In this document: piece after piece, positions 3,751-58,904 of the stretch
Layout of the letters: each line of letters begins with the position of its first letter
Position numbering within the stretch: the first letter of the stretch is position 1
Source of the DNA: Isurus oxyrinchus
Taxonomy: Eukaryota
Assembly: GCA_026770705.1 (NCBI GenBank)
Contig: JANJGN010000010.1
Location: forward strand, 67,208,001-67,272,000
Length of the DNA stretch: 64,000 bases
Reading direction: 5' to 3'
Notes under the pieces: generated by a model
The model's input: only the letters and a program-made list of their open reading frames with translations
Told to the model about the DNA's origin: nothing
Databases searched by the model: none
Program-made: the position numbers and the translations under genes

Positions 3751-3811
3751 AAAGTTGAAATGAATAAAGTTTGAAACCCATGCCTTACATTTAATTTCAA
3801 CTGCTTTACAG

Positions 3812-3949
3812 GTCCTTTCGTGGATAAGGCGCATTCAGTCTTAGACATGATCTCCACCACTCTGCTTCAGATGGAGGAAGAACTGAATGAACTGGATAGG
3901 GAAGCAGGAGATGGTGACTGTGGTGTTACACATGCAAGGGCAGCACAGG
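3812..3949 (+). CDS. TKFC: TKFC internal exon (start of DhaL domain): [46 protein letters not shown]
   Basis: Acceptor tttacag| and donor |gtcagt. LNELDR-AGDGDCG-TH is the DAK2/DhaL signature. The phase 1 end joins the next exon in frame. Confidence 0.95.
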
Positions 3950-4339: not shown

Positions 4340-7300
4340 TATAATCTGTGTTGTGGACTGTACACAACCCTTTTAGCCTACTAACAACTTTCCTTTCCCA
4401 GAAGCTCAAGACAATCATTCTTTGCACAATATTTAAATGTCTCCACCTTTATTCCAAAACGTCGAGCTCTTTTTCAAAAATTATTTTTCCTTTTGCTAAA
4501 TACAGTTCTACAAGAGAATGGTATGCTGTTGAACCCACATATCCCTAAAAATCTCATGATTACTGGTTTTGTTATGGGAATGGGAAACTGTACAACTGAA
4601 TGTACCTTTGCTGCTCTAGGCAATACTTGTTCCTGACCCGCCACGTGGTAGGTCACCTGATCCTTAGCGAACTTGCTCTTTGCGAGATTGATCACTAGGT
4701 AAGCTGACTGTAATTTCTTGAAGAGGGCTTCCAGCTGCTTTCTGTGAGTTTTCCAGGTGTCACTGTACACTAGGAAGATGTGTAGGTACATTATACAGTT
4801 GGATAAGCCTGCCACTACCTGGTTCATAAGCCTTTGAAAGGTGGTTGAGGCATTCCCGAGTCCAAATGGCATGACTCGACACTGGTATAACCCATCCGGA
4901 ATCACAAAAGTGGAGATTTCCTTCGTGCGGGCAGTCAAGGGAACCTGTCCATATCCCTTGAGTAAACCTACCTCTGTAATGTAGGCTGCATTATCTACCT
5001 GACCTATGCAGTCTTCCAGGCGGGGAGTTGGCTCTGGTCACTATTAACCTTGCGGTAGTCAATGCAGAGGCTTGGGCACAAGCAAAATGGGGGACCTCCA
5101 TCTACTGCTGCTGGGCTCTGTTAGTTGGTGCTATAGCATGCAGTTAATCTCCTCCAGAACCCAGGCCAGCTTTTCTGGACCTAGACAGTAGGGATGTTGC
5201 CTTATGGGAGGGACCTCTCCCACATCCATATCATGTACAGCCGAAGTGGTTCAGCGTGGCTCACCTCTGCAGATGTTTTTAAATGCAGTGAGCAGCCTTG
5301 TCTGATGATCTCACTTTTCTGCACTTAGATGGGTGAATATGGTGTCCAGCTTCACTAAAATTTCTGTGTTTGCTAGCTGGATAGTAAGAGGTTCAGTGTG
5401 GGCCTCACCCATGTCTCCCTCCAATTCACCCTCTTTGTTCCTCTCGTCCTCCAGGTCTGTTGTTATTGGACAGACCGTATACCCGCTTCTCCCATTCTCG
5501 CTGTTGCTGACATGACACAAGCCTTTGCGTTTTCCTGTGGTCTGGTGTGTCAATTAGATAGTTAACCTTCCATAGCTTCTTTGCTATTCTGCATGGGCCA
5601 CTGAAACAGGCTTTTAGGGGTTCACCCAGTATTGGTAGGAGCACTAGTATGTTGTCTCCTGGCTGCAAGGTTTGTTTATCTGCCTGTATTTTCATAGCTG
5701 TTAGGGAGATTTTTCAGTGTTGTTGAACCATATCACAGGCTCTCGTGAGTCACTCATGGAACACAGGTACGTAGTTTAAAATGGATATTTCCAACTTCTG
5801 TTCTAAAAATCTCTCCTTGATTAGTTTCCAAAGATCTATCACTTGGTGTCCGTAAACCAATTCAAGTGGAGTAAAACAGGTGAACTCATTGGGTCAGTCT
5901 CTGTACCAAACAGAAGAAAACCTAGTCTTTTATCGTAGTCAAGTCATGAGGGTACTCATGGCAGTATGCCCTGATCATTGTTTTTAGGATCTGGTGGTAC
6001 CGTTCTAGTGCCCCCTGCGGCTGCACGTGATTTGCCTAAGCCTTCAGCTGGGTCACACCCAGGTTACCCATGACTTCCTGGAATATTTGGGACATGAAAT
6101 TTGAGCCCTGATCCAACTGGATCTCGGTGGACAGTCCGTACCGGGTAGAGGAATGTGTTAAGTCCCCCACTACTGTTTTAGCAGATAGGGTTCTCAGGGG
6201 AATGGCCTCTGGAAGTGGGTCGCCACATCCATGATGGTAAGGAAATACTGGTTTTGTTTTGCGCAGGGGTCCCAACCACACCTTACTGAATGCTTCCCCA
6301 AAAGCCAGCATGGGAATCATAGGTGCAGGTTTTTTGCAGCCTGGGGTTTTCCCACAGCCTGACAGGTGTGGCAGGATCTGAAAAACCTTACTACATCCTC
6401 GTGGAGGTGTGGCCAGTGAAAATGCTGGCTAATGTGAGATTGAGTTTTCCTTATACCAACATGCCCAGTCATTGGGATTTCAATTGCTAGTCTTATTATT
6501 TTCCCACGGTGCCTCAGTGGCACCACTACCTGATGGATCACTTTCCACTCCTCGTTTGTAGGTCTGTGAGGGGGCCCCCACTTCCTCATCAGCACATAAC
6601 TTTTACTGTATTAACATTCAGGGATTGCCTGTGTCTCCACTTCAGTTTGGGCAATCTGAGCTAAACTACAACCAAGGAAGACCCATTTTTAACCTCCTTA
6701 GGGTCCTCTAGGCTACCCAAAAAAGACCTCAGATAACCTGACAGGGTCATCTGTCTACAAGTGCCAATTCAGCTGCAAGTGATGGAGTTTGTCTGACCAT
6801 AGACCAGGTTACCACACAGTTAAGGAAAATGCCAAGCACTTTCTCCTGCAGCAGTTCTGTCTCCCTGACCTCAGTCAGCTTCTCTGAGACTACTGGGGAT
6901 GCTATCACTTTTGATCCTGCCAGGTCATTGCTGAGGAGCAGGTTGACCCCATCCACGGGCAAACTGGGGACGACTCCCATGGTTATAGGCCCTGACAAAA
7001 GGTTGCACTTCAGGTGCACTCAGTATAAGGGGATGGGTATGTACCTGCCTTCAACATCCTTTAACAGCACCTTGCCACTTATTCCACTATCTAGTGGAAA
7101 GGTCATGCCTTTTCCCAACAGTAGATTTCGGTTGGCACCTGTATCCCTCAGTATCACTGTAAGATTACCTACCTGGGAAAATGTAGCCACTCTTCTGTCT
7201 CATACAAAATCCTGTAACCCTCAGGGATTTTTAAAAATCTGCACTCACAGAGGTGTGCCTACAGGGATTCGCTGCCACTGTCAGAGCCATAGCCTGGTCT

Positions 7301-8893
7301 GCTATGCTCTCTGTCTGACTTCCATTTTCTGTGCAAAGTTTGTGTGCCCCAACAAATCCCAAGGGTTATTCCTGTAACTTTAGCTGTCAGCACGGAGGTA
7401 TCCTGCTTTGTGGCAGTTTAGACACACAGACTTCTTGGCCTCACTCCTCTTCTCAGCACAATCCCTCCTGGCTTGAGGAGGGCCCTCTTTGTTTTCAGGT
7501 GTCCCTTCTCTCCCATGGGTGCTCAGTTTCCTATCACTCTCCCACCTTCTATCCTTCTCAGTGGTTGGGGTGGCTAGGGAAAAGTTGCCTTTGGGATGAG
7601 TTTTTGTGAACCAGCTCTTAATCATCAGCCAGTTTTGCTGCCTGTCTGGCCCCTGTTACTCTCTGTTTCTCAATGTGAATTCTTTTCTCTATGTGAATTC
7701 TTATTGGGAGTTGTATGGCGGTTTTGAACTCCTCAAGGAGAATTATTTCACAAAGGTGTTTGGCAGTGGCCTCAATTTTATACGTCTGTATGCATGGTTC
7801 AAAAGTGAGCTGTTTAAACTGTTCAAATTTCAGGTATGTCTGGTCAGGCCATTTGCTGAGGTTACAGAATTTTTGATAGTACACCTCTGGCACTAATTGG
7901 TATGCACTTAAAATAGCCCTTTTTGCTTTCTTATAGATTGTTGCACTTTCCTCAGGCAAGAGGGAGTAAATATTGTGAGCTTTTCCTGTCAGCTTACTCT
8001 ATAACAGCAGGGACCAGTGTTGGGCTGGCCACTTTAACTGCTGTGCTAAACCTTCGAAAGAGATAAAGAAGGCATCCACCTTCTTTATTGTGAGCAATGA
8101 GGAGCCAAACAAATCAGGTTTTCTTGAGTTGAAGGAAGAGCAAATTCGTTAACCCCCTAAACCCAAGAAAAATAATAAAAGCACGACGTTTAGCATTCAG
8201 CCACATACAAAAGACACACACCCAAACACACACACACACACACCAGAAATAAGAGTTAGAGTCCGATAAAAAAGGTAAAAGAATATACAGTTAAGGTCCT
8301 ATGATTGTCCTTCAAGCGTAGATTTTAAACCTTGTGGCTGATTTAGGTTAGCTGGTTTCTTGGATGTAGTCAGGTATAGAGGATGTTGCAATTAATACGA
8401 GAACTCGGTTTGCTGGTAGATTTCTGATAGAGCTGGCTTCTCGAACTGGATGGCACACTTGTTCCAAAAGAGAGAGAGGGAAAGAGAGCAGCCGTCAGCT
8501 TGTTTCCTCTGCTGAAGACTTTCTTGACACTGCCTGTGTTACTTGCAGTCTGTCTTTCGTGGCTGGCAGCCTTGCCTTGAAATGCTTCACCCATTGTGTA
8601 TTTCCAAGAGATTTTGGGTGTGCATTTGATCGCCATTGTTTGAATATCCAGTACTTTGCATTTTTAATGTCTCTTCCATAGACAGTTAAGAGTTTTGATG
8701 GGTGTTTAGATTATAGGAAATGTCTCTCTCTTACTCCCCTGAGGGTAATTTGTTGGTTTTTCATGTCCACCTTGGAATGTGACCTTGCATTTTGGAGCCA
8801 TTTTCCCTGAATCATTTCAAATTGCAAAATTTCCAGTCAGTTGAAAGTTGAAAAATCATATTTTCAAAAATGAAGGTGCTTAGCCTTGTAACA
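4340..8893 (-). mobile_element. Decayed Gmr1-like Ty3/Gypsy LTR retrotransposon (gag/SCAN-like, CCHC, protease, integrase, RT) with a probable 5' LTR at ~8089-8893
   Basis: Minus-strand fragments: AILSAYQLVPE...ILLEEFK, CLNCHKAGYLRADS, GHVGIRKT...HFHWP...CHTCQ, IQLDQGSNF, MPFGLGNASTTFQRLM. Many frameshifts. Confidence 0.85.
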
Positions 8894-11740: not shown

Positions 11741-11876
11741 TAGTTCTGATGAAAGTTTATAAACCTGAAACATTAACTCCATTTCTTCCTACACAGGTGC
11801 TGTCAGGCCCACTAAGTAATCCCAGCCTTTTCTGTCTTTATTTCAGTTTCCAGCATCAGCAGTATTTTGCTTTTGT
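11741..11876 (+). mobile_element. Short PLE 3'-end fragment with a canonical hammerhead core (11742-11778)
   Basis: AGTT-CTGATGA-...-GAAA-CATT-AACT, followed by the PLE terminal sequence and tail ccagcatcagcagtattttgctttt. Confidence 0.7.
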
Positions 11877-14341: not shown

Positions 14342-14448
14342 GGACTCGAAGTTCTGTCGAAGGGTCATGAGGACTCGAAACGTCAACTCTTTTCTTCTCC
14401 GCCGATGCTGCCAGACCTGCTGAGTTTTTCCAGGTAATTCTGTTTTTG
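14342..14448 (+). mobile_element. Short PLE 3'-end fragment with hammerhead motif (14350-14388)
   Basis: Essentially identical to 28581-28680 from the hammerhead onward. Confidence 0.9.
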
Positions 14449-16846: not shown

Positions 16847-16950
16847 CTGTACAGTATTTCCTTGATGGCAGCAGCACCAAGTCTGAAAGATAACAACAAT
16901 CCCTCTTCCTGGGCAGCGGCTTTGAATTCTGGAATTAAAGCATTGAAGAG
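16847..16950 (+). CDS. TKFC: TKFC exon: LYSISLMAAAPSLKDNNNPSSWAAALNSGIKALK(R)
   Basis: ttgtag| acceptor and |gtctgt donor. Aligns by eye to the vertebrate LYGLFLTAAA...WSAAMDAGLEAM segment. Phase 0 in, phase 2 out. Confidence 0.92.
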
Positions 16951-21660: not shown

Positions 21661-22248
21661 AATGTATATATTTTTATATTTTAAAATTATCTTGCTCACT
21701 GTGGTGGATTGACATTGTGATTTTAAATGCATATTTTTTGTGATATTGTTCACCCATTTTCAGCTCTACTAATCAAATTTTAACAAGTTGACGCCATTGA
21801 GTATATCGAGGAATATTTAGGAATGCAATTTTTTTTTAAGCTTTAAAACTGACACATGTCAGCTTTTGTTTTTGGTAACATGCAAATGATTTGAATGGAA
21901 ACAGAGGGTTGGAGGGAAAAAAGTGTATCAAAGTGGATGCAGTTTATGGCACAATTTGTGCCAAAATCACCAATTGTGCCCAAGTCAGATACTCTACTCC
22001 AAAGAACAGGATTTTTACTGGTACAATTTGATCTCTAGACAAATGTCATACCGCCATTTTGCTATACAGAGATAGATGACTACCACACCAATAGTCATTA
22101 GGGCTGGACTTTCTAACAGTCGTTGTTGCAGTGAGAAATAGCACAGAGTTTTGCTTGAATTTTTCCATTCTCTTTTTGTTCCAGAGTGCTGATGTGAATT
22201 GTGGTGTTTGCTGACAGTTGTTTAATTAAGTTATTTTTTGTTGCACAG

Positions 22249-22282
22249 ATATGGAGGTGCGGAGCTAGGAGATAGAACCATG
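22249..22282 (+). CDS. TKFC: TKFC 34-nt exon: (R)YGGAELGDRTM
   Basis: ttgcacag| acceptor and |gtgagt donor. The YG-A-xGDRTM motif of DhaL. Phases match neighbours. Confidence 0.93.
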
Positions 22283-23231
22283 GTGAGTCTATATCCTTAC
22301 ACTTGAGCAGCTCCAATTGCAGCTAAGTGGTGAAAGAAATGGGTATAACAGATTCTTAAAGGGTATTTAATCTAGCCTATCACTTTTACATGGTCTTGGA
22401 AGAATGTTATGTGGCATGTGCTACTCACTGTAGTACTGAGTTGTACAGACCAGGAGGGTCCAAAGCTTAGTAACAATTTTGAACCCTGACTTATTCTGAA
22501 TTTGGGAAACCTCAACATAAACTTGTTGGATTCACTCAGTCTAGCTGCCAAGAAAATGCAAGGGTGGTAGGGATATTTGCCCTGTTGGTGTAGCTTTCTT
22601 CCCTTGGTCCATGTTTCTGTCTATTGAATTCTTTTTTTTTTCCAGACAACATTAAGCTTCTCATGCTTCTCCTTGTGCCTGTAACCTCTTCCCTCCGACA
22701 GTTGTTATCAGTTTCTTTAGTGAAGAAATTCAGGCAGAGATGATGTTTATTACAACTGAACCAACAATGAAGATTTACTTATTAAAGGGCCACTATTATA
22801 TGAAAAAAACTATTACTTGGGGAGGGGATTTAATTATGAATCATTTGGATAATTATATCATCATGTGTGGGTGGGAAATGAACAGCTTGATTTTAAAATT
22901 CTCATTCTTGTTTTCAGTTCCCTTCATTGCCTCATCTCTCCCAAAATGTTAACCTCTTTCAACCCTCCAAGAACTGTCTTCCTTCTACTTTGGCCAACTT
23001 GGCCCTCCGACTCCCGTTACCACTCAATTTGCAAATGGTCCATCAGGTGAATAGGCCCTAAGCTCTGGAATTCCTTCCCTAATGTCTCCACCTCTCTTCC
23101 TTTAAGAACTTGCTTAAAACCCATCTGTAATGAAATCACCCATCCTCATTTCTTCTTCTTTAACTATGTGTCATTTTTGTCTGATTATGCTCCTGTGAAA
23201 TGTCTTGTATTTTCTTCTAGGGACTAGACAC

Positions 23232-23507: not shown

Positions 23508-24165
23508 GGCACACGCTAGTGATGTTATGCTCTTAAATGAAAACATCTCCTTTAAATGTGATTGAGATCCAAATTGTAGAGAGCAGTTGCTTCTGGGCTT
23601 CAGGATTGGTTTTCTTTAATGTTTATTTTTCTGGACATATCTCCATGGATGAGGTAGGCTGCATACTAACTTAAAACAAAAACAGAATTACCTGGAAAAA
23701 CTCAGCAGGTCTGGCAGCATCGGCGGAGAAGAAAAGAGTTGACGTTTCGAGTCCTCATGACCCTTCGACAGAACTTGAGTTTGAGTCCAAGAAAAAGTTG
23801 AAATATAAGCTGGTTTAAGGTGTGTGTGTGGTGGGCGGAGAGATAGAGAGAGAGAGAGGTTGGCGGGGGGGTTGGGGGGTGGGGGGTTGGGGGTATGGTT
23901 GTATGGATAAACAAGCAGTGATAGAAGCAGATCATCAAAAGATGTCAACGACAATGGTACAATAGAACACATAGGTGTTAAAGTTAAAGTTGGTGATATT
24001 ATCTAAACGAATGTGCTAATTAAGAATGGATGGTAGGGCACGCAAGGTATAGCTCTAGTGGGGGTGTTTTTTTTTTAGAATGGAAATAGATGGGAAAAGG
24101 AAAATCTTTATAATTTATTGGAAAAAAAAGGAAGGGGGAAACAGAAAGGGGATGGGGGAGGGAGC

Positions 24166-25392
24166 TCACGACCTAAAGTTGTTGAATTCAATATTCAGTC
24201 CGGAAGGCTGTAAGGTGCCTAGTCGGAAGATGAGGTGTTGTTCCTCCAGTTTGCATTGGGCTTCACTGGAACAATGCAGCAAGCCAAGGACAGACATGTG
24301 GGCAAGAGAGCAGGGTGGAGTGTTAAAATGGCAAGCGACAGGGAGGTTTGGGTCATTCTTGCGGACAGACCGCAGGTGTTCTGCAAAGCGGTCGCCCAGT
24401 TTACGTTTGGTCTGTCCAATGTAGAGGAGACCACATTGGGAGCAACGAATGCAGTAGACTAAGTTGGGGGAAATGCAAGTGAAATGCTGCTTCACTTGAA
24501 AGGAGTGTTTGGGCCCTTGGACGGTGAGGAGAGAGGAAGTGAAGGGGCAGGTGTTACATCTTTTGCGTGGGCATGGGGTGGTGCCATAGGAGGGGGTTGA
24601 GGAGTAGGGGGTGATGGAGGAGTGGACCAGGGTGTCCCGGAGGGAGCGATCCCTACTGAATGCCGATAAGGGGGGTGAAGGGAAGATGTGTTTGGTGGTG
24701 GCATCATGCTGGAGTTGGCGGAAATGGCGGAGGATGATCCTTTGAATGCGGAGGCTGGTGGGGTGATAAGTGAGGACAAGGGGGACCCTATCATGTTTCT
24801 GGGAGGGAGGAGAAGGCGTGAGGGCGGATGCGCGGGAGATGGGCCGGACACGGTTGAGTGCCCTGTCAACGACCGTGGGTGGAAAACCTCGGTTAAGGAA
24901 GAAGGAGGACATGTCAGAGGAACCGTTTTTGAAGGTAGCATCATCGGAACAGATGCGACGAAGGCAAAGGAACTGGGAGAATGGGATGGAGTCCTTACAG
25001 GAAGCGGGGTGTGAGGAGCTGTAGTCGAGGTAGCTGTGGGAATCGGTGGGTTTGTAATGGATATTGGTGGACAGTCTATCACCAGAGATTGAGACAGAGA
25101 GGTCAAGGAAGGGAAGGGAAGTGTCAGAGATGGACCACGTGAAAATGATGGAGGGGTGGAGATTGGAAGCAAAATTAATAAATTTTTCCAAGTCCCGACG
25201 AGAGCATGAAGCGGCACCGAAGTAATCATCGATGTACCGGAGAAAAAGTTGTGGAAGGGGGCCGGAGTTGGACTGCAACAAGGAATGTTCCACATACCCC
25301 ATAAAGAGACAGGCATAGCTGGGGCCCATGCGGGTACCCATAGCCACACCTTGTATTTGGAGGAAGTGAGAGGGGTTGAAGGAGAAATTGTT
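24166..25392 (-). pseudogene. 5'-truncated inverted copy of the PLE ORF (RT C-terminal half plus GIY-YIG)
   Basis: The 393-aa ORF is nearly identical to the C-terminus of ORF 26258-28192. Confidence 0.92.
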
Positions 25393-25442
25393 TTTTTTGT
25401 TTTTATCTCTGTGTTTAATTGACTGCCACTGCTCTTCAAGAA

Positions 25443-28192
25443 ATGCCTACCTCCTTGAAGAAGTTCTGTTCCTCTCTGCGACAAGATTTCCGTATCTCTC
25501 TATTGCCTAATTCACCTTTGCTTTCCATTTCCCTCCTGGTGTTTGATAAGGTGTTTACTAAAACCCGCTTTCACAGCCATATCTCCTTTCTCAGTGACTG
25601 TCTCCGTCTCCGACTTACCCCACGTGGATTTCAACTGAAATTCCACCCCTCATGTTTCGAACCCACCCAGGATTACCGGTATCTCCGGGACATAAAACGT
25701 TTCTCGGACTGCTGTTCCCGTCACATTCTGAAATCCACACTCAGTGCCATGCGCCGCCATATGAACACACTCGACCTCTCCCTCCAGCAGCACCGCCGTA
25801 CCCTTTTTCAAAGCTGCGCGTGCCCCCAGTTTCATTTTATCCTTCGGCTCATCCGACGCCTCAACAAGAAACTTTTTCTCTTTCTTTCAAGTGCTAAGGA
25901 ACACAAGCTCCAACAACTCATCGACACCATCACCCATCTAGGACCCTCCACCCCTGCCTGTCCCTCCGTCCCCACCCTTTCTTCCAATCCCAACCCCAGC
26001 CGTGTATTCACTATACCCCCTGACCTTCCCCTCTCCGATGCTGAACGTTCAGTGCTCAGCAAAGGACTTAGTTTCATACCCTTACGCCCTCACCTCAATG
26101 AATCTCGGGCTCTGCATGATACTGAACTCTTCTTCCACCGTCTTCGTCTCCGGGCTCACTTCTTTGGGCAGGAGTCCTCCCAGTTCAACGGATCCTTTTA
26201 CCCATCTCCAATATTCTCCCTCCACCTGGACCCCTCCCTCTGGATTCTTACCTTCTCTTGATCTTTTCATTGAGAACTGTCGACGCGACATTAGTCGTCT
26301 CAATTTCTCTGCTCCTCTCACCCATTCTAACCTGTCTCTCTGAACTTACTGCACTCCATTCTCTCAGGTCCAACCCTGACATTGTCATCAAACCCGCTGA
26401 CAAGGGTGGTGCTGTTGTTGTCTGGCGCACTGACCTCTACCTCGCGGAGGCTGAGCGTCAACTCGCAGACACTTCCTCCTACCTCTCCCTGGACCATGAC
26501 CCCACCACTGAACATCAAGCCATTGTTTCCAGGACTGTCACTGACCTCATCTCCTCTGGGGATCTCCCTCCCACAGCTTCCAACCTGATAGTCGCCCAAC
26601 CTCGGACGGCCCGCTTCTATCTCCTACCCAAAATCCACAAACAGAACTGCCCCGGTAGACCGATCGTCTCAGCTTGCTCCTGCCCCACAGAACTCATTTC
26701 TCGTTATCTTGACTCCCTTCTCTCTCCCCTTGTCCAGTCCCTTCCCACTTACATCCGTGATTCCTCTGACACCTTACGTCACATCAACAATTTCCAGTTC
26801 CCTGGCCCCAACCGCTTCGTCTTCACCATGGACGTCCAATCTCTCTACACCTCCATCCACCACCAGGTTGGTCTGAGGGCCCTTAGCTTCTTCCTCGAAC
26901 AGAGGCCCGAAAAATCCCCATCCACTACTACTCTCCTCCGTCTGGCTGAACTTGTTCTCACGCTGAACAATTTCTCCTTCAACTCCTCTCACTTCCTCCA
27001 AATAAAAGGTGTGGCTATGGGTACCCGCATGGGCCCCAGCTATGCCTGTCTCTTTATGGGGTATGTGGAACATTCCTTGTTGCAGTCCTACTCCGGCCCC
27101 CTTCCACAACTTTTTCTCCGGTACATCGATGATTACTTCGGTGCCGCTTCATGCTCTCGTCGGAACCTGGAAAAATGTATTAATTTTGCTTCCAATCTCC
27201 ACCCCTCCATCATTTTCACGTGGTCCATCTCTGACACTTCCCTTCCCTTCCTTGACCTCTCTGTCTCAATCTCTGGTGATAGACTGTCCACCAATATTCA
27301 TTACAAACCCACCGACTCCCACAGCTACCTCGACTACAGCTCCTCACACCCCGCTTCCTGTAAGGACTCCATCCCATTCTCCCAGTTCCTTCGCCTTTGT
27401 CGCATCTGTTCTGATGATGCTACCTTCAAAAACGGTTCCTCTGACATGTCCTCCTTCTTCCTTAACCGAGGTTTTCCACCCACGGTCGTTGACAGGGCCC
27501 TCAACCTTGTCCGGCCCATCTCCCGCGCATCCGCCCTCACGCCTTCTCCTCCCTCCCAGAAACATGATAGGGTCCCCCTTGTCCTCACTTATCACCCCAC
27601 CAGCCTCCGCATTCAAAGGATCATCCTCCGCCATTTCCGCCAACTCCAGCATGATGCCACCACCAAACACATCTTCCCTTCACCCCCCTTATCGGCATTC
27701 CGTAGGGATCGCTCCCTCCGGGACACCCTGGTCCACTCCTCCATCACCCCCTACTCCTCAACCCCCTCCTATGGCACCACCCCATGCCCACGCAAAAGAT
27801 GTAACACCTGCCCCTTCACTTCCTCTCTCCTCACCGTCCAAGGGCCCAAACACTCCTTTCAAGTGAAGCAGCATTTCACTTGCATTTCCCCCAACTTAGT
27901 CTACTGCATTCGTTGCTCCCAATGTGGTCTCCTCTACATTGGACAGACCAAACGTAAACTGGGCGACCGCTTTGCAGAACACCTGCGGTCTGTCCGCAAG
28001 AATGACCCAAACCTCCCTGTCGCTTGCCATTTTAACACTCCACCCTGCTCTCTTGCCCACATGTCTGTCCTTGGCTTGCTGCATTGTTCCAGTGAAGCCC
28101 AATGCAAACTGGAGGAACAACACCTCATCTTCCAACTAGGCACCTTACAGCCTTCCGGACTGAATATTGAATTCAACAACTTTAGGTCGTGA
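25443..28192 (+). pseudogene. PLE RT plus GIY-YIG endonuclease ORF, probably Neptune clade, with two frameshifts (~26180 and ~26340)
   Basis: LSKGLSFIP, KPADKGGAVVV, FYLLPKIHK, GRPIVS, MDVQSLYT, GVAMGTRMGPSYA, RYIDD, CPRKRCNTC linker, LVYCIRCSQCGLLYIGQT...RFAEH. Spread over ORFs 25419, 26002 and 26258. Confidence 0.92.
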
Positions 28193-28581
28193 GCTCCCTC
28201 CCCCATCCCCACCCCCTTTCTGTTTCCCCCTTCCTTTTTTTTCCAATAAATTATAAAGATTTTCCTTTTCCCATCTATTTCCATTCTAAAAAAAAACACC
28301 CCCACTAGAGCTATTCCTTGAGTGCCCTACCATCCATTCTTAATTAGCACATTCGTTTAGATAATATCACCAACTTTAACTTTAACACCTATGTGTTCTA
28401 TTGTACCATTGTCGTTGACATCTTTTGATGATTGCTTCTATGACTGCTTGTTTGTCCATACAACCACACCCCCAACCCCCCAACCCCCCCACAACCTCTC
28501 TCTCTCTTCTCTATCTCTCCGCCCACCACACACACACCTTAAACCAGCTTATATTTCAACTTTTTCTTGGACTCGAACTCA

Positions 28582-28620
28582 AGTTCTGTCGAAGGGTCAT
28601 GAGGACTCGAAACGTCAACT
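28582..28620 (+). ncRNA. Minimal type I hammerhead ribozyme motif in the PLE 3' region (core variant CUGUCGA), predicted cut after GUC at 28616
   Basis: Stem I AGTT/AACT, CTGTCGA, stem II GGGTC/GACTC, GAAA, palindromic ACGT in place of stem III. Copies at 23737-23775(-), 44136-44174(-), 46371-46409, 51822-51860, 58804-58842, 63011-63049(-). Confidence 0.75.
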
Positions 28621-28721
28621 CTTTTCTTCTCCGCCGATGCTGCCAGACCTGCTGAGTTTTTCCAGGTAATTCTGTTTTTGTTTTGGATTTCCAGCATCCG
28701 CAGTTTTTTTGTTTTTATGCA

Positions 28722-28728
28722 TACTAAC
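28722..28728 (+). promoter_or_regulatory. Probable splicing branch point (TACTAAC) for the TKFC exon at 28782
   Basis: Perfect U2 branch consensus. No AG dinucleotide lies between it and the acceptor AG at 28780-28781. Confidence 0.65.
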
Positions 28729-28781
28729 TTAATTGTTTTGCCTGGATCCCAATCTGCACTATGTTATGCCTTTTATCCTAG

Positions 28782-28871
28782 CTTGATTCACTGTGTCCTG
28801 CTGAGGAGGAGTTAAGTAAATTGACAGATGAAGATAGCAATGAACTGCAAGTGCTGGCTGAGGCTGTACAG
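28782..28871 (+). CDS. TKFC: TKFC penultimate exon: LDSLCPAEEELSKLTDEDSNELQVLAEAVQ
   Basis: ttttatcctag| acceptor and |gtaggg donor. LDSL completes the GDRTMLD motif. 90 nt, phase 0-0. Confidence 0.93.
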
Positions 28872-29564: not shown

Positions 29565-29738
29565 AAAGCTGAAGCAGGTGCAGAAGCCACCAAGGATATG
29601 ATAGCAAAGGCAGGACGGGCAAGTTACATCTCTTCCGCTCAGCTCACCCGACCCGACCCAGGTGCCGTGGCCTGTGCTGCCATTTTGAAGGCCATCTTGA
29701 CAGCTCTTGAACAGCCTACTCCAGAAGGGCAGGAATAA
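29565..29738 (+). CDS. TKFC: TKFC last coding exon: [57 protein letters not shown]
   Basis: tctgtttccag| acceptor, GRASY and PDPGA motifs of DhaL, TAA at 29736-29738. Confidence 0.96.
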
Positions 29739-32400: not shown

Positions 32401-32900
32401 AGCAAGTATAATTATTAGAGAGCCATGGGGTATTCATGAGTGCAGGTGCTCTTTGTGATGGAGAGTGTATGTGGTCAGAAGCCCAGGTCAGGATGTCATA
32501 TTACGATTTGCATGTGAATTCCTGGAATATGTCCATATTTGCACGGAGCCACTCAAGCATCTTAGTAGGCCAGATCTTGCTCTGTTACATTGTTACAAGT
32601 CCAAAACAGGGACTTGCCCTTAGCATCCCTGTAATTTTAAAGAACTTGTTGGACTTGCACATTAATGGCCATTAAACTTGTCACGGAAAGTTAGGGATAA
32701 AACTTAATAGCATATTTTTTTAATGGCATCATAATGTTTAATACAATGCCAATCAACCTTTCTAGCTCAGAAGAGGAACAATTTAAATTGTTCAATCTTA
32801 TTCCTACATCTAGTAAATTATTGTTAGAGATTTTAAATTTTTAATTTGACTTTAATTCACCACCCACCCCTCATTGCTCCTCTTTCTTTCTCCATCCTAG

Positions 32901-33990
32901 AACTAAGCCAATTTTGAATCCACCTTATCACGTGGGATACAGGGTAATTTGATAAGGTGGATTCAAAATTGGCTTAGTTGTAAGAGGCAGAGGATGATGA
33001 CAGAAGGATGCTTTAGTGACTGGAAGCCGGTATCCAGTGGCGTACCACTATTATTTGTCATTTACATAAACGACATAGATGACTATGTGGGGGGTAGGAT
33101 TAGTAAGTTTGTGGATGACACAAAGATTGGCCGGGTGGTTAACAGTGAGGTTGAGTGTCTTGGGCTACAGGAAGACATAGATGGTCAAATGGACAGATAA
33201 GTGACAGATGGAATTTAACCCTGAAAAGTGTGAGGTGATACACTTTCGGCATGGCTCTTGAAAGTTCTGAGGAACAAAGGGACCTTGGCAAGTGTGTCCA
33301 TAGATCTCTGAAGGCAGAGGGGCACGTTAGTGGGGTGGTGAAAAGGGCACATGGGACACTTGCCTTTATCAGTCGAGGCATAGATTACCAAAGTAGGGAG
33401 GTCATGTTGGAGTTGTATAGAATCTTGGTGAGGCCACAGCTGGAGTACTGTGTGCAGTTCTGGTCACCACATTATGGGAAGGATGTGATTGCACTGGAGG
33501 GGGTGCAGAGGCGATTCACCAAGATGTTGCCTGGGATGAAACATTTAAATTATGAAGAGAGGTTGGATAGACGAGTTGTTTTCGTTGGAGCAGAGAAGAC
33601 TGAGGGGCGACCTGATCGAGGTGTACAAGATTATGAGGGGCATGGACAGGGTGGATAGGGAGCAGCTGTTCCCCTTAGCTGAAGGGTCAGTCAGGAGGGG
33701 ACATAAGTTCAAGGTGAGGGGCTGGAGATTTAGGGGGGATGTGAGGAAAAACTTTTTTACCCAGAAGGTGGTGACAGTCTGGAATGCACTGCCTGGGAGG
33801 GTGGTGGAGGTGGGTTGCCTCACATCCTTTAAAAAGTACCTGGATGAGCACTTGGCACGGCATAACATTCAAGGCTATAGGCCAAGTGCTGGTAAATGGG
33901 ATCAGGTAGATAGGTAGGTCAGGTGTTTATCACGTGTCGGTGCAGACTCGATGGGTCAAAGAGCCTCTTCTGTACTATGTTTCTGTGATC
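32901..33990 (+). mobile_element. 5'-truncated CR1 LINE with a 30-bp fold-back at its 5' junction, inserted in a probable MITE remnant
   Basis: WIQNWL...LFVIYIND...SKFVDDTK and LVRPQLEYCVQFWSP motifs, plus a CR1 3' UTR. Confidence 0.9.
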
Positions 33991-36626: not shown

Positions 36627-36856
36627 ATAAAAGCAAAATACTGCGGATGCCGGAAATCTGAAATAAGAACAGAAAATGCTGGAAAAACTCAGCAGATTTG
36701 CCAGCATCTGTGGAGAGAGAAACAGAGTTAACCTTTCAAGTCCGTATGAAATATATGGCTCTAAAGAAGAGCCATACAGACTCAAAACATTAACTCTTGT
36801 TTTCCTCTCCACAAATGCAGTCAGACCTGTTGAGTTTTTCCAGCATTTTCTGTCAT
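36627..36856. mobile_element. Miniature inverted PLE insertion: two 3' ends pointing outward
   Basis: Minus-strand end with tail (36627-36749) plus plus-strand end with a degenerate hammerhead (36757-36853). Degenerate 14-bp TSD tatcccatttttag (36613-36626) / tacctcatttttag (36857-36870). Confidence 0.75.
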
Positions 36857-39669: not shown

Positions 39670-42600
39670 ATGGCCAGAAACTGGGCACCACGAGGTGAGG
39701 GCAGAGGAGGAGGAGGGAGGCAGGCTGCAAGGTAGGCCAGTGGGGGGCCACTTTGCCCCTCAGTTCTCTGATGCCTGCCTTACTGTCCTCCTGGAAGAGG
39801 TGTCCAACCATCTTGTTTCCAGAGGATGGGAGGAGAAGGGCCCCCACGTGACCAGGCAGGTGTAGCAGGAGGTGGCGGAGGCTCTCAAGATGGTGTGTGG
39901 CGCACAGGAGCACAGTGCCGCAGGCGCTTTGATTAATTGTTGCGCTCTGGAAGGGTGAGTACCATATCATCCTTGGCCATTTTACCCAGCAGGTAGCCTT
40001 AGCCTTTGAGGCCGCCGCCCCCCCCCCCCCCACCCCCCCTCCAACATCCTAGTGCCGTTACTGCATTGGGCATTTGGTTCACACTGGGTGGGCAAACAGA
40101 TAGTGACCATCCTTACATCAGCCTTAGTGGTTGAGGAGAAGATGGGTTCTCCCCCCAGCATATGTTGGTGTTTGTTGCATTTGAGTATTCTGGGGGCAAC
40201 CTGCAGGGGAGGCAGCTAGACACATACTCAGAACTCCAACACCTGTCTTATTGATGGTGATGAGGTGGTGGAAGGGGAGCCTTAAGGTGTCGTGGCCAAG
40301 AACCATCTGCTGGCCTCGGCGCCGCACCTAGTTGTGCCTCCTTGTCATGGATGCTAAGACCCGTGTGTTATTCAAATTGATGGATGCCGATTGTGTCCAA
40401 GGTGGCCATTGGGGAAGGGGGTTGGGAGCAGCCATACTATCTTCTGGGAACTGATCACCAGTAGTGTGGACAAGAGCCGCTGGAGGCCTCAGATGGGCCA
40501 CTGTGGTTGGGGTGCGGTGTGCGCGTGCAAAGTACATGAGCGATCAGCCCCAATAAATGCTCTTCTCTGTTCTGCAGGCACAAACTGAGAGCAATATCTG
40601 GGAGCGTCAGTGGACTGATGGTGGGCATGCCGTGCTGCAGCACCTCACCACTTATGAGGAGCAGGCCATGGAGCTGGAGAGGAGGCAGGCGGACAGGTTG
40701 GCAGGTGTCGGCGAGGCTGGGGTGCAGCGGCCAGGTATTTGAGGGCTACAGTCCCATCCACTCTGTCACCCCACCATCCAAAGCACTGATGATTGCTGCA
40801 ATCATTAATGCAGCAACACTGCTCGTTCACGGACTGATACAGTCAGACATGTGGGTCATACACAAAGATCCCTTGGCTCCTTGAGGATGCGCGCCTCTAG
40901 CACCTTCCAAAGTTGCCTTATCCCATTTGTGACCACTATCCCCATAGCCTAACATGCCATGGCATCACTGCTGCACATCCAAAGACTTATTGCATCTTAG
41001 GAGGGTTTGTACCTCCACCACCCTTTCAGCCAGTGTGTCCCACATTACTCTGTCCAAAAGGTTCTCAGCACCTCACCTGTCAACCTCATGGCACTCAACT
41101 TAAATAAATGCCATCACGTTAGTCATCCCTGCGCCAAGGGGAAATGTTGCCTTCTATCCACCCGTTCTATGCTCCTCATAACGGTATGAAGGTCAATAAT
41201 GTGACCTGTCAATCTCCTGTGCTCCACAGCAAATGTTGCAAGTGTATGCAATGTTTCCTCATAGCTCCAACTCTCCAGGTTGGCATGCATCCAGGTCAGG
41301 AACCTCTGCACTCTCCCCACTCAAATGCCATCCCTCCCATGAAGCGCAGGTCACAAGTGAATGCAAAAGTGTAGATGTGGCCTCGACAGCGGTTGACATG
41401 ACCTCCCTTTTCCTACATTCTATTCCTCGGCAAGTCTGGCTTCGACCTTGTTAAACACCTTATGTTCCTGTTCTGCTACCTTAACTGGTCTGCCTAGCAA
41501 GGTCCCTGTAATTGTTGTGACTTCCCACGGTCCTACCATTACTCACATATTCCTGTACCTTGCTTGTCTTGCCCAAGTGCTTAACCGCACACTTATCCAC
41601 ATAACATTCCATGTGGCATTCCTTAGGCCATCTGACCAGCCTGTCTGTATGCGCGTGTAATGTTTGGGCCTCCTCTTGACAATTTATCACCCCACTAATG
41701 TTCATCTCCTTAGGTTCTGGTGAGCGACTTATGAGGCTGGGTGGGAAAGGGATGAAAGGTGTTACTGACTGAATGCTAACTGATGCACTGTCCATGTTGT
41801 TAATTTCAGCATCACCACCCCATGGCCGCCACCAACAAGTCCAGAGCCCCCCTCTCCATACCTGAGGGCCAACCCTTGCAACTTGCGTCACATCCTTTCA
41901 GCGAGCCAGGCACCAGCGCAGCGACAAACACTTCAGTGGGGATTATGATGTCGACTAGTGTCCTGGGGCACAGTGGAGAGGGCACTTCACAATCGCTGGA
42001 GGAGATGGCATGGACAGAGACTTCCGATGGCGCCAGCAGCCAGAGGACTGCAGGGGACCAGGCACGTGCTGAATCCAGCAGTGATGATGTGCCTCTGGAG
42101 ATGTCAGCCATGCAGCAGCTGCAGGACAAGCGGCAGGGTCCTCGGGAGCATCTGACAGGGTTGCATGAAGGTGTACTTCACTTGGTCTCTGTGGTGGAGG
42201 AGTCCAGGCAGAGTGTCAGTGATGGCATGAACTTCAGTACAGAGTTTCAGGCTTCCTCCATTGAGAGATTGGCGACTCTCATGGAGCAGGGCTTCCAGCA
42301 GATTGAGAATGTTCTGACTGGGTTACTCTCTGACCTGCAAGCCCTCACAGTGGTACTGGCTACAGGTGGTCATTCGCAATGTGGGAGATGTTCTGGGCAA
42401 CAAGTGTCGCCGCTCGGTGCCCATCCATCTGCGATGAGCAGGGATGTCCAATATGACTTCACTATGACTTCACGTTGGCGCAGCAGGTGCCAGTTGTCAC
42501 TGCAAGCTCCTGTCAGGGCGCTCCGGATGAGGGCAGCAGCTGCTCAACCCCTCTGTCAGTACCGTTGCATCAGTGGAGGCTGCGATAACTGGAGAGGTGC

Positions 42601-42782
42601 CAGTTCTGCAACTGGCCACTCCCTCCGAGGTGGGGCCAGCACAGGCTCCACGGGCCAGAGAACGGCCGCCAAGATCATCGAAGCCAACAGGATAGCAGAG
42701 TCAGGCTGTCTTACAAGCCACTCCGAGCGATGGGGCGGCACCTAGACGCAGCACCCGCAAATGTAAGCATAGGGCACATTAG
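39670..42782 (+). pseudogene. Harbinger Myb/SANT-like gene (exons ~39670-39954, 40578-40734, 41810-42782), with a CR1 fragment in intron 2
   Basis: APQFSDACLTVLLEEV...LFPEDG start, ERQWTDGG...LTTYEEQAMEL exon, GT-AG boundaries. Contains stops and frameshifts. Confidence 0.7.
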
Positions 42783-43088: not shown

Positions 43089-46000
43089 CTAGCTGAAGGT
43101 TCATTGGATTAAAGTGTCCTGGATGTCCCTGCCTCCTTGGTGTAGTAGCGGGTCGGCGTGCTGTCCCTCATCATTGCCCTGTGCTTCCTCATCCTCTGAG
43201 CCACTGCTGGATTCATCATGTGCAGCCTCACCTATTGATTCAAGGCCTTCATCGTCAACTGCGTCCCCCCTTCCCAGCGCAAGATTGTGCAGAGCACAGC
43301 CTGCTACCACTGTCACAGAGACGCGATCTGGGCGCTACTGGAGTGTACCCCCTGAACATTCCAGGCAACGGAAGCGCATCTTGAGAAGACCAATGGTTCT
43401 CTCCACCACAGCCCTTCTGGTGCCATGGCTCCTATTGTAGTGCTCCTCAGCTTCTGTTCTTAGATGGCAGAGAGGCGTCATGAATCATCTTCTGAGGGGA
43501 TAGCCCTTATCACCCACCAGCCAACCATCCAGTCGAGCCGGAGCACTGAAGAGCCCCGGCATCTGGAAGTGTCTGAGGATATAGGCATCGTGGGAGCTGC
43601 CTGGGTACCTTGCACAAACTTGCAGAATCTGCATTCTGTGATCACACACTATCTGCACGTTCATGGAGTGGAATCCCTTCCATTGATGAAGGCACCGGGC
43701 ACACCTGCTGGTGCCTTGATGGCCACATGTGTGCAGTCTATTGCACCCTGGACACGGGGGAAGCCAACAATGGCCAATAAGCCTCTGGTTAGCTATGCCT
43801 GACTTGCCTGGTCACAGCGGAAGTGGATGAAGGTCAATGCACATCTGAACAGAGCGTCTGTAACCTGCTTGACACAAGTGTGGACAGTTGATTGGGAGAC
43901 ACCGCAAAGATCACCCACCGAGCCCTGGAAGGAGCCAGAGGCATAGAAGTGGAAGGCAACTGTGACTTTCAGAGCCACTGGCATGGGGTATCCACCCACA
44001 CAGTTGGGGGATATCTCCCAGCCAATTATCTGACAGATATAAAAGCAAAAAATTGCGGATGCTGGAAATCCAAAACAAAAACAAAAATACCTGGAAAAAC
44101 TCAGCAGGTCTGGCAGCATCTGCGGAGAGGAACACAGTTAACATTTCGAGTCCAAATGACCCTTCAACAGAACTAAGTAAAAATACAAGAGAGGTGAAAT
44201 ATAAGCTGGTTTAAGGTGGGGGGGGACAAGTAGAGCTGGACAGAGGGCCAGTGATAGGTGGAGATAACCAAAAGATGTCATAGACAAAAGGACAAAGAGG
44301 TGTTGAAGGTGGTGATATTATCTAAGGAATGTGCTGATTAAGGGTAGAAAGCAGGACAAGCAAGGTACATATAGCATGGTGGGGGTGGGGTGGGGTGAAG
44401 GAATCAAAAAAGGCTAAAAGATAGAGATAAAACAATGGATGGAAATACATTTAAAATAATGGAAATAGGTGGGAAAAGAAAAATCTTTATAAATTAATGG
44501 AAAAAAGGGGGTATCGGTGTGGGGATGGGGGAGACAGTTTATGATCTAAAATTGTTGAACTCAGTATTAGTGCGGAAGGCTGTAAAGTGACTAGTCGGAA
44601 GATGAGATGCTGTTCCTCCAGTTTGCGTTGAGCTTCACTGGAACAATGTAGCAAGCCAAGGACAGACATGTGGGCATGAGAGCAGGGTGGAGTGTTGAAA
44701 TGGCAAGCGACGGGGAGGTCTGGGTAATGCTTGCGGACAGACCAAAGGTGTTCTGCAAAGTGGTCACCCAGTCTGCATTTGGTCTCTCCAATGTAGAGGA
44801 AACCACATTGGGAGCAACGAATGCAGTAGACTAAATTGAGGGAAGTGCAAGTGAAATGCTGCTTCACTTGAAAGAAGTGTTTGGGCCCTTGGACGGTGAG
44901 GAGAGGGGAAGTAAAGGGGCAGGTGTTGCACCTTCTGCAGTTGCATGGGAAGGTGCTGTTGGAGGGAGTTGCAGTGTCGGGAGTGATGGAGGAGTGGACC
45001 AGGGTGTCCCGGAGGGAACGATCCCTGCAGAATGCCGCCAGGGGGGTGAAGGGAAGATGTGTTTGGTGGTGGCTTCATGCTGGAGTTGGCAGAGCTGGCG
45101 GAGGATGATCCTTTGAATGCAGAGGCTGGTGGGGTGATAAGTGAGGACAAGGGGTCTCTATCGTGTTTCTGGGAGGGAGAGGAAAGTGTGAGGGCGGATG
45201 CGCGGAAGATGGGCCGGACACAGCTGAGGACCCTGTCAACCACCGTGGGTGGAAAACCTCGGTTAAGGAAGAAGGAAGACATGTCAGAGGAACTGTTTTT
45301 GAAAGTGGCATCATCAGAACAGATGCGACGGAGGCGAAGGAACTGAGAGAATGGGATGGAGTCCATACAGGAAGCGGGGTGTGAGGAGCTGTAGTCAAGG
45401 TAGCTGTGGGAGTTGGTAGGCTTGTAATGGATATTGCTGGACACCAGAAATTCAGACAGAGAGGTCAAGGAAGGGAAGGGAAGTGTCAGAGATAGACCCT
45501 GTGAAAATGATGGAGGGGTGGTAATTGGAAGCGAAATTAATAAATTTTCCCAGAGTGTATGAAGCAGCACCGAAGCAATCATCGATGTACCAGAGAAAGA
45601 GTTGTGGGAGGGGGCCAAAGTAGGACTGGAACAAGGAATGTTCCACTTACTCCATAAAGAGATAGGCATGGCTGGGGCCCATGCGGGTACCCATAGCCAC
45701 ATCTTTTATTTGGAGGAAATAAGAGGAGTTTAAGGAGAAATTGTTCAGTGTGAGAACAAGTTCAGCCAGACGGAGGAGAGTAGTGGTGGATGGGAATTGT
45801 TCAGGCCTCTGTTCGAGGAGAAAGTGGAGAGCCCTCAGACCATCCTGGTGGTGGATGGAGGTGTAGAGGGATTGGACGTCCATGGTGAAGAGGAGGCGGT
45901 TGGGGCCAGGGAACTGGAAATTGTTGATATGATGTAGGGTGTCAGAGGAATCACGGATGTAGGTGGGAAGGGACTGGACAAGGGGAGAGGGAATGGAGTC

Positions 46001-46749
46001 AAGATAGCAAGAAATGAGTTCCATGGGGCAGGAACAGGCTGACATGATCGGTCGGTCTGCCGGGACAGTCCTGTTTGTGGATTTTGGGTAGGAGGTAGAA
46101 GCGGGCCATCCGAGATTGGGAGACTATCAGATTGGAAGCTGTGGAAGGAAGATCTCCAGCCCTACTAGGGCTATCTGTACCTTGCTTGTCTTGCTTTCTA
46201 CCCTTAATTAGCACATTCCTTAGATAATATCACCACCTTCAACACCTCTTTGTCTTTTTGTCTGTGACATCTTTTGGTTATCTCCACGTACCACTGGCCC
46301 TCTATCCAGCTCTACTTGTCCCACCCCCCTTAAACAAGCTTATATTTCACCTCTCTTATATTTTTTACTTAGTTCTGTTGAAGGGTCATTTGGACTCGAA
46401 ATGTTAACTGTGTTCCTCTCCGCAGATGCTGCCAGACCTGCTGAGTTTTTCCAGGTATTTTTGTTTTTGATCTGACAGATATAGTTGACTGTCCCCCTTG
46501 ACAGTCAGAACCTCCTTCAGCACTACACCTCAGTCATATTGAGGTAGCTGCTTCGCCACCTGTATACCCTGGCAGCAGGATAGTGGCGTCTTCTTTGACA
46601 ACCTCTTGGCCCTGCACCCCTTGTGCCTGCGCCTGGCCTCCCAAAGGTGTCTCCCCTGGAGGCTGATAGTCCACTCCTGGTGTCCTCCTTATTCTATCCC
46701 TCCCTTCCTGCTCAGAGGAGCTGCCTCCAGTGGAGATGTCAGAACCCAT
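43089..46749 (-). pseudogene. Harbinger (HARBI1-like) DDE transposase split by a PLE insertion
   Basis: LKVTVAFHFYASGSFQ, IDCTHVAI, GFHSMNVQ, YPGSSHDAYIL, LVGDKGYPL, CALHNLAL motifs. The reading continues across the TSD (YICQI). Confidence 0.9.
44042..46469. mobile_element. PLE insertion: 5'-truncated minus-strand copy (44042-~46159) plus inverted 3' arm (~46160-46469), 14-bp TSD
   Basis: TSD atctgacagatata at 44028-44041 and 46470-46483. RT and GIY-YIG remnants in ORFs 44487-46214. Confidence 0.93.
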
Positions 46750-47995: not shown

Positions 47996-48720
47996 ATAGA
48001 GAAGATTGAAATAAGAAAAAATAATTTGGATAGCTCTGAGGAAGAAAGGAATACAGTAGAAAAAGACATTAGAAAACTTGTAGACTGGGCATTTAAATGG
48101 AAAATGAACATTAATATAAATAAGTATGAGGTGGTGCACTTTCTAGGAAAAGCAGAAACTGCACCAATACCTTAGAAAATAAGAAACTGAATGTAGTCAG
48201 AAGGCAAAGGGATCCAGAGTACAGTTGGAAAAAATTAATTAAATCAGTATCACAGGTTAGCAAAATTATTAAAAATGCTAACAAACTACTGGATTTTATT
48301 TCTAAGAATATAGAACCTAAAGGTAGTGGAGCTATGTTAAACTTATATATCTGACCCTCGTCAGGTCATACTAGTGTAGGCTTCTGATCTTCGTACTATA
48401 TAAAGGACATAGATGCACTGGGAAAAATACAAAAAGATTTACAAGGGTGGTACCAGGACTGAGAGAATACAGCTATTAGGAAAAATTGAACAGGTTGGAA
48501 CTTTTGCTTTAGAGTAAAGCAGACTTTGAGGTGACCTGATTGAGATCTTTAAAATTATGAATGGGTTGAACAGGGTAGATTTGGAGAGATATGTGGACAA
48601 TCCCAAATTAGTGGCAATCAACACAAGTTAGTTAATTCCAGAATAAGGAGAAATTTCTTTACTCAGAATGCTTAGAACGTGAGCTCATTACCACAGGAAG
48701 TTTAGTGTTGTAGAAGGATT
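47996..48720 (+). mobile_element. Old CR1 RT fragment
   Basis: LVDWAFKWKMNININKYEVVHF motif. Confidence 0.6.
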
Positions 48721-48769
48721 TGTAAACTAAACAAAGCCTGACAGGGACTGCCACATGAACAATTTTTCT

Positions 48770-49170
48770 GAGCCCCCCCACCCCCATGTCCCCAAGTTAC
48801 ATCAAGAGTGGAATGGACAAAACACATCAATGACCCTCTCTTTCAGAAAGCCATCAACAAAGAAGTTGTAGTTGAGGGGCAGCTTCCTACGCACTGTCCA
48901 GCCCTAGGCTGTAACCCCCACAGCTGTTCCCTTGCTCATTGGTTAACACATCAACAGACAAAGGTTCACGAGTTGTCTAATGACCCAAAGGAATTGCTTC
49001 TGCCAGGACCCAATAAAATATGGCCGACTTGGCTTTGTCTCAATTGCCTCAGGACTGGTGTTGGTTACTGCAAAGCCCTTTCACAGAAGTGTGGATTCAG
49101 CCAAGCATGTTGTTTACTGTGACTGGATAGACATCCCAAACAATGAAAGGTATATAAGAATGCCTTCTGC
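48770..49170 (+). mobile_element. Non-LTR retrotransposon C-terminal fragment (Vingi/ingi-like)
   Basis: WLCLNCLRTGVGYCKA...KCGF resembles the W..LNRLRTG.G.C....KWG C-terminal motif. Confidence 0.4.
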
Positions 49171-51659: not shown

Positions 51660-52130
51660 GATGGGTGAGACACACAGGAAGAATGAATTGATACCTGGGA
51701 ATAAGTTACACAGAGAATAATGAATACCCAAGAGCAATTTACACAGACCATTTGGTCCAGGAAGTGAATTACAGATAGAGAATTGGGTATCTGCAAGTGA
51801 TTTAGATAACCTTGAACTTCAAGTTCTGTCGAAGGGTCATGAGGACTTGAAATGTCAACTCTTTTCTTCTCCGCCGATGCTGCCAGACCTGCTGAGTTTT
51901 TCCAGGTAATTCTGTTTTTGTTATAGAGAATTATGGGTTCCCGGGAGAGAGTTAAACAGTGTGTGATGAATAGCCAGTAAGTGCTGCATACATGGGAGTG
52001 AATTTCACAGAGAATGATCAATGTCCAGGAGTGAGTTACACAGAATGCTAAATACCACAATAGAAATACTGAATGTGACTATCTATGAGCAAGTTACACA
52101 GTGCTGAATATGTAGGAGTGACTCACACAG
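51660..52130. repeat. Degenerate ~33-bp tandem repeat interrupted by a PLE fragment
   Basis: Recurrent gagtgagttacacagagaat...ccca words. Confidence 0.55.
51813..51922 (+). mobile_element. Short PLE 3'-end fragment with hammerhead motif
   Basis: Near-identical to 28580-28682. Confidence 0.9.
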
Positions 52131-58697: not shown

Positions 58698-58734
<37 letters not shown>

Positions 58735-58904
58735 TCTCCGCCCCCCCCCCCCCACACACCTTAAACCAGCTTATATTTCAACTCTTTCTTGGACTCGAAC
58801 TCAAGTTCTGTCGAAGGGTCATGAGGACTCGAAACGTCAACTCTTTTCTTCTCCGCCGATGCTGCCAGACCTGCTGAGTTTTTCCAGGTAATTCTGTTTT
58901 TGTT
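58056..58904 (+). mobile_element. 5'-truncated PLE (GIY-YIG plus 3' UTR plus hammerhead), 14-bp TSD
   Basis: ORF 58064-58393 is the endonuclease domain. TSD ttggatccagccat at 58042-58055 and 58905-58918. Confidence 0.93.

Follow-up and report, generated by a model that had tools for sequence, protein, structure and literature searches.

Minimal hammerheads of Penelope-like elements were uncut as monomers and weakly cleaving as dimers in the report by Cervera and De la Pena, whose 56 representatives (Figure S3) all carry A at core position 6, include no cartilaginous fish and were collected with a descriptor that fixed the core (PMC4209133). A natural hammerhead with A6C cleaves slowly in Mg2+ and functions in Mn2+ (PMC3088659, PMC7151607), with a rate there of 0.18–0.31 per min (PMC7151607). 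Single mutants of the CUGA turn have low activity, and second mutations brought no rescue except for a C3–G8 swap (PMC9901934). As for the elements themselves, hammerhead mutations left the in vitro insertion of an anole element unaffected, and the anole RNA data contained no reads starting or ending at the cut site (PMC11167929). Naiad elements spread without a hammerhead, and an inverted truncated partner is an arrangement described for Penelope-like elements in the same source (PMC8557442). A preprint of 2026 on retrozymes in animals included a single cartilaginous fish and applied canonical and minimal models (10.64898/2026.07.22.740005). No natural A6U hammerhead appeared among the literature matches listed (the largest variant survey, Lunse et al. 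2017, lay outside their scope and could contain one), and no measured A6U cleavage rate was met in the literature examined.

We analysed a stretch of 64,000 nucleotides of the shark Isurus oxyrinchus (the window), in which a hammerhead motif carries U at core position 6. The U6 variant is real and heritable, and apparently unreported in the literature examined; it is a one-base variant of a known, possibly dispensable motif.

Motif copies and the element that carries them

The focal copy (28582–28620, +) is a minimal type I hammerhead motif with stem I AGTT/AACT, the core CTGTCGA, an extra A, a 5-bp stem II, GAAA and a palindromic ACGT; U replaces A at core position 6 (28589). The hammerhead consensus places the predicted cleavage nucleotide H17 at C28616, the site after which the first-pass annotation had put the cut. 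That annotation had also listed eleven such motifs, and a copy is present at each of its coordinates, with those at 23737, 44136, 60520 and 63011 being minus-strand copies quoted by their low coordinate; a twelfth, rearranged copy (36631–36778, -) had been missed. An nhmmer profile of the motif with its adjoining tail recovered these 12 copies at E ≤ 8e-27 (next match, E = 0.058), with an uninformative distribution of 7 on the plus and 5 on the minus strand. A relaxed descriptor (at most one mismatch in the 5' core) gave 10 matches in the window versus 2 in 20 block shuffles and recovered 10 of the 12 copies, and an Rfam search of the window returned 6 matches to E = 1, none to a hammerhead family.

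Core position 6 is U in eight window copies, about one per 8 kb, A in three decayed ones and rearranged in one. All eight copies of subfamilies A, B and C are U6, and their cores are the two that had been ascribed to the least decayed copies. Five read CTGTCGA and form subfamily A: the focal motif, an identical one in an inverted 5'-truncated copy (23737–23775, -), a solo copy lying sense in an intron of the host gene TKFC (14350–14388, +), a solo copy with two CpG-type changes (51822–51860, +) and a copy (58804–58842, +) 3' of an endonuclease fragment (58062–58915). The other three read CTGTTGA: two of subfamily B, one 3' of a decayed RT-EN copy (44136–44174, -) and the other its inverted partner (46371–46409, +), and a single subfamily C copy with A-U in stem II, again 3' of an endonuclease fragment (63011–63049, -). 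The A6 copies comprise one at 11742–11778 (+), 61–65% identical to other copies, whose core is canonical CTGATGA as had been claimed; one that has lost G5 (CTAATGA; 60520–60560, -); and one that has lost G5 and G12 (CTAAAGA) and has a broken stem I (36757–36795, +). The twelfth copy, with a rearranged 5' core, is the inverted partner of the last.

All eight U6 copies keep the remaining ten core letters, and the consensus CUGANGA...GAAA...UH is departed from at A6. Stem I, stem II with G10.1–C11.1 and the extra nucleotide after A9 are all present, and the palindrome reads ACGT in 4/8 copies, ATGT (wobble) in 3/8 and ACAT (broken) in 1/8. A register shift restoring A6 was sought by eye in the motif and none was found, nor did we find a compensating change travelling with U6 inside the motif. 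The compatible variation of stem II that had been noted holds among U6 copies as one-sided changes, G.U to A-U (63049) and G-C to G.U (51822), and the window copies contain no two-sided change. Over motif and tail, subfamily A copies are 98–100% identical to each other, A and B 89% and A and C 82–84%; the A6 copies are 61–85% identical to any other copy, and a tree of motif plus tail sets U6 apart from A6 copies with support 0.92. The window copies belong to one element family and are not 11 independent motifs.

The link to Penelope-like elements drawn in the first-pass annotation was borne out by the surroundings of the focal copy. An ORF with a reverse transcriptase (RT), a CX4CxxC linker and a GIY-YIG endonuclease (26126–28192, +) ends 390 nt upstream and is followed by the 3' UTR (28193–28581, +). 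It is preceded by a 5' leader and the N-terminal part of the ORF (25393–26261, +; first ATG at 25443), with two frameshifts before the RT frame, and by an inverted 5'-truncated copy that is 97.6% identical (23673–25392, -). Domain matches in the ORF were RT at E = 6e-7 and a weak GIY-YIG at E = 7e-4, the latter scoring 20.2 bits, under the Pfam cut-off of 22.6 bits. Full-length relatives align over 25398–28186 in three frames, which makes the focal copy a nearly complete one carrying two frameshifts. The locus thus has the traits of Penelope-like EN+ elements: a C-terminal GIY-YIG after RT in one ORF (with two frameshifts in this copy), a pseudo-LTR, an inverted 5'-truncated partner and a variable tail. 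The linker, CPRKRCNTC at residue 554, points to Neptune or Nematis as the probable affiliation; related locus L047 and other relatives carry the hammerhead that Cervera and De la Pena give for an Acropora digitifera Neptune element. Among the 120 protein matches listed, the named ones with the highest identity came from cartilaginous fish (64–74%).

3' of the hammerhead lies a conserved tail (28621–28718, +) whose end varies among copies and is continuous with the 5' leader of the element. Its end, at 28718, has a match where the ORF-bearing copy begins (25393–25406), and loose contig ends after 28718 begin with CTCTGT in three sequencing runs, the same letters as at 25407. From these matches we infer that in a tandem source element the predicted cut site would lie about 138 nt 5' of the first ATG. 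A splice-donor-like CAG/GTA (28663–28672 and equivalents) occurs in all 8 U6 copies, the other 4 copies having CAGCA or CAGCC; in a tandem element this donor could open an 87-nt intron ending just 5' of the ATG at 25443. A reading of the copies as a non-LTR retrozyme was rejected: there are no tandem short-repeat units, and the copies are dispersed or inverted, five of them behind RT/EN sequence.

The host gene is TKFC (triokinase/FMN cyclase), whose last exons lie within the window (3808–29738, +) and whose best-aligned exons are 93–100% identical to shark proteins. One exon (28797–28871, +, ends approximate) begins about 180 nt 3' of the focal hammerhead, and further exons lie near 3808–3948, 16847–16950, 22241–22297 and 29566–29735 (+); residues ~415–450 of the shark protein were not located in the window. 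The intron that precedes the exon near 28797 is largely filled by the element, which ends 78 nt short of that exon. Copies 11742, 14350 and 28582 are sense to the TKFC pre-mRNA, and the intact U6 copies lying sense in TKFC introns number two.

Elsewhere in the window, a single-copy match to the CPEB3 ribozyme model (48712–48788, -; Rfam, 31.3 bits against a gathering threshold of 35, E = 2e-4) has P1 and P4 that can pair by eye, two mismatches in P2 and a broken P3; no CPEB exon was found among 130 frames scanned from 28782 on, and the match would be either a decayed HDV-like ribozyme or chance. A near-perfect, MITE-like inverted repeat with arms of ~35 bp (32880–33009) gave chance plant-miRNA matches in Rfam. 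A DDE_Tnp_4 transposase fragment (43488–43811, -; E = 4.5e-12) and a nearby frame of 313 aa without a Pfam match (41804–42745, +) may be parts of a Harbinger-type element, and frames at 4474–7998 (-) and 33239–33917 (+) resemble what we take to be broken LTR-retrotransposon pol/gag and LINE 3' ends.

Conservation of the motif and the state of position 6

Subfamilies A, B and C, the last a single copy, were each represented by one sequence in a comparison of substitutions. Of the 39 positions of the motif, seven vary: N7, two in the loop, H17, the middle two palindrome bases and the stem II pair that goes from G.U to A-U. Variation thus falls on 6 of 9 positions that the hammerhead leaves free and on 1 of 30 core or stem positions, where it is pair-compatible (p = 2e-4); without CpG columns the counts are 2/4 and 1/27 (p = 0.037). 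Because the changes sit at free positions and not in core or stems, the hammerhead fold looks conserved among the U6 subfamilies. The motif class was confirmed by a set of 18 aligned motifs (6 from the window, 12 related), in which 91% of cells are paired in the hammerhead structure with 59 two-sided changes, a level that 0 of 500 shuffles reached; this signal comes mostly from invertebrate-type motifs, themselves picked by a pairing descriptor.

The same comparison bears on a different account, in which the U6 motif has lost its ribozyme function altogether and its sequence persists for a different role that the terminal repeat plays (as promoter DNA or protein-binding RNA) or simply reflects a recent split of the subfamilies. 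We regard this as possible, if somewhat unlikely. It draws on the tail being about as conserved as the motif, both standing above the 3' UTR (A–B identity 89% for motif plus tail vs 66–67%), and on the borderline difference between constrained motif positions and the adjoining tail (1/30 vs 11/60, p = 0.055; p = 0.093 at non-CpG positions). A dead core would leave unexplained why changes concentrate on N7, loop II and H17, the places where a hammerhead tolerates them (p = 2e-4 as above).

We then asked what position 6 looks like beyond the window by comparing the stretch 28520–28760 with public sequencing runs X1 and X15 (organism A) and X11 (organism B), counting variants at a threshold of 3%. 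Matching contigs numbered 100,524 in X1, 45,505 in X11 and 3,773 in X15 (the last RNA by guess only). No row for T>A at 28589 was present at this threshold in X1, X15 or X11. The variable motif positions were 28590, 28613 and 28614 only, with N7 read as T at 27% of depth in X1, 11% in X15 and 29% in X11, and as G at 3.5% in X1. G8, C11.1 and G12 are embedded in CpG yet have no entry at the 3% threshold, and in X1 and X11 four other CpGs varied at 3–20%; this also speaks, weakly given contig effects, against a dead core. These counts come from contigs, which drop variants, and X1, which was flagged for an incomplete count, could be the very sample that gave the window. The two matching raw reads of run X21 both fell on the tail and were therefore silent on position 6.

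By these data U6 is the prevailing state of the lineage in both organisms. The proposal that the family consensus itself is non-canonical was upheld over CTGANGA, U6 standing in 8/8 A/B/C copies and being the majority letter in the contigs of both organisms. The broader claim that young families are U6 stands within the window; A6-type families were clipped at 28628 in the contig count and are thus absent from the position-6 tally, so young A6 families elsewhere in the genome are possible. A6-type tails are abundant among the loose ends of the same runs. That abundance would suit an account in which U6 copies are substrates only, cut in a mixed dimer by the A6 core of another Penelope-like family with the same stem I and palindrome, and U6 and A6 copies do have in common stem I and an ACGT-type palindrome. 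We consider it very unlikely: it leaves the conserved 5' core, stem II and GAAA of the U6 copy unexplained, and the mixed dimer would be held by 4 + 4 base pairs only.

The polarity of the change was read from related elements at 89 loci (the best 80 of 386 metagenome stretches encoding one, and all 9 of those from genome contigs). With the relaxed descriptor, 37 matches turned up in 31 of these loci, 30 of them distinct, compared with 1 match in 10 shuffles. In the 30 distinct motifs, from invertebrate-type elements, position 6 is A in 29, G in one and U in none. As A6 is found in 29/30 related motifs and in 56/56 published representatives, U6 is by this comparison the derived state. An exact scan for the shark-motif pattern in metagenome contigs gave 0 matches, a protein search with the frame across the motif (31–102 residues as query) yielded no candidate for position 6 in other sharks, and viral contigs gave 34 pattern matches with 0 relatives.

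Other core variants occur among the relatives. A U4C subfamily (core CCGACGA) accounts for 11 matches, 6 distinct, at 10 loci (L081:2611–2646+, L070, L063, L082, L084–L086, L089, L004 and L017), alongside canonical CTGACGA siblings of an Acropora-type family; in several of these loci the motifs lie about 110 nt 3' of Penelope-like ORFs. The presence of this subfamily beside canonical siblings suggests that uncompensated core changes can spread repeatedly in these elements. The single G6 motif is in L005, and U3–A8 occurs in L022 and L059. Loci L081–L089 are animal-type Penelope-like elements in two bacterial MAG records and likely represent host DNA.

Predicted folding and the capacity to cleave

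In the bare 39-mer, stem II is predicted with a probability of 0.96–1.0, which falls to 0.06 or less with 25 nt of downstream sequence in six of six copies tested. The folding predictions argue against an easy monomer. In subfamily A the 3' arm of stem II has in addition a second copy upstream (28569–28578, +), whose predicted pairing partner is the core's 5' half, with U6 contributing. At ±25 nt the predicted stem II probability in this subfamily is 0.00 for the native sequence and 0.94 for an in-silico A6 control, which would fit a core that is ribozyme-dead. This trap is missing in B and C, where the A6 control is predicted to fold no better than the native sequence, and in subfamily A the control also misfolds at ±50 nt (0.01 native vs 0.09). 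A dead core would agree, too, with the poor cutting of canonical minimal motifs and with the anole RNA reads, none of which is bounded at the cut site (PMC4209133, PMC11167929). A pairing of loop II with bases after stem I, sought by eye, had no register common to A, B and C and was discarded. The dimer energy of -11.9 kcal/mol covers the nested part only, the cofold minimum being -18.2 kcal/mol, and was not used as evidence.

The explanation we favour, at roughly even probability, is a shark Penelope-like lineage with an inherited U6 hammerhead that likely folds as a dimer and cleaves at a much lower rate than an A6 core would. Its starting points are observations: the anatomy of the element, the U6 state and its spread over subfamilies and two organisms, the polarity and the substitution pattern. 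A6U would have arisen once in the shark element lineage, before A, B and C split. Two motif copies would swap the ACGU palindrome to build helix III; cleavage 3' of C17 would trim the RNA of the element. The change would have lowered the rate of a ribozyme already weak and dimer-dependent, and it may have been carried along because insertion can proceed without a fast cut and a slow ribozyme may be less harmful to host transcripts; residual cutting, or the fold itself, could still be under selection. Attenuation is favoured since known position-6 mutants are slow and Penelope-like insertion occurred without cleavage in vitro.

A more generous view holds that U6 is a tolerated, working core, fast enough to be useful in the cell because its metal preference has shifted, as with A6C and Mn2+, or because a protein of the element assists it. 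The ten intact core letters in 8/8 U6 copies and the very high copy number in X1 and X11 are consistent with it, as is the rate that A6C retains in Mn2+ (PMC7151607). We nevertheless think it distinctly unlikely, given that U6 is found in 0/30 related and 0/56 published motifs, that CUGA-turn mutants were unrescued apart from the C3–G8 swap (PMC9901934) and that the motif holds no compensating change that we could find. Only a small chance attaches to a further proposal, that A6U is a working natural core selected for conditional cutting, dependent on Mn2+, on an element protein or on escape from the upstream trap. Were it true, these elements, together with the U4C subfamily, would tune cleavage through core substitutions, and the family would be invisible to CUGANGA searches.

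On the slow-dimer reading that we prefer, as on that of a dead core, the family would show clearly how a ribozyme decays while its lineage amplifies, a matter mainly for specialists. A successful family with an uncompensated core change is a natural test of whether Penelope-like elements need hammerhead cutting. Position 6 has been treated as fixed and hard-coded in genome searches, which would miss lineages such as the shark U6 one.

Comparison with described hammerheads and elements

The motif descends from, and would work like, the minimal Penelope-like hammerheads. We class it as a variant and refrain from calling it a proven ribozyme, because its core departs from the consensus at A6 and its cleavage is a prediction. 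With the hammerheads of Cervera and De la Pena 2014 it has in common the place in a terminal repeat, a 4-bp stem I, the extra nucleotide after A9, G10.1–C11.1, a palindromic remnant of helix III and an occurrence mostly as solo truncated copies (PMC4209133). It differs in U6; the core variant reported there is a compensated U3–A8.

The nearest likeness at position 6 is the Bcep176 A6C hammerhead (Perreault 2011, PMC3088659; Naghdi 2020, PMC7151607), also a natural pyrimidine in an otherwise intact core. Bcep176 has C at a single phage locus with measured activity, whereas the shark motif has U throughout a retroelement lineage and is a putative ribozyme. The element itself resembles the EN+ members of the Neptune clade in RT, a CX2-5CxxC linker, a C-terminal GIY-YIG, an inverted truncated partner and a variable tail (Craig 2021, PMC8557442); a Neptune affiliation is suggested by the linker, common to Nematis as well, and indirectly by the Acropora hammerhead. 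It also recalls PAc, a Poseidon element of Anolis, in the hammerhead at the junction of repeat and ORF and in the internal-initiation tail (Frangieh 2024, PMC11167929). PAc belongs to another clade, and its hammerhead is canonical, active and overlaps the start codon (PMC11167929).
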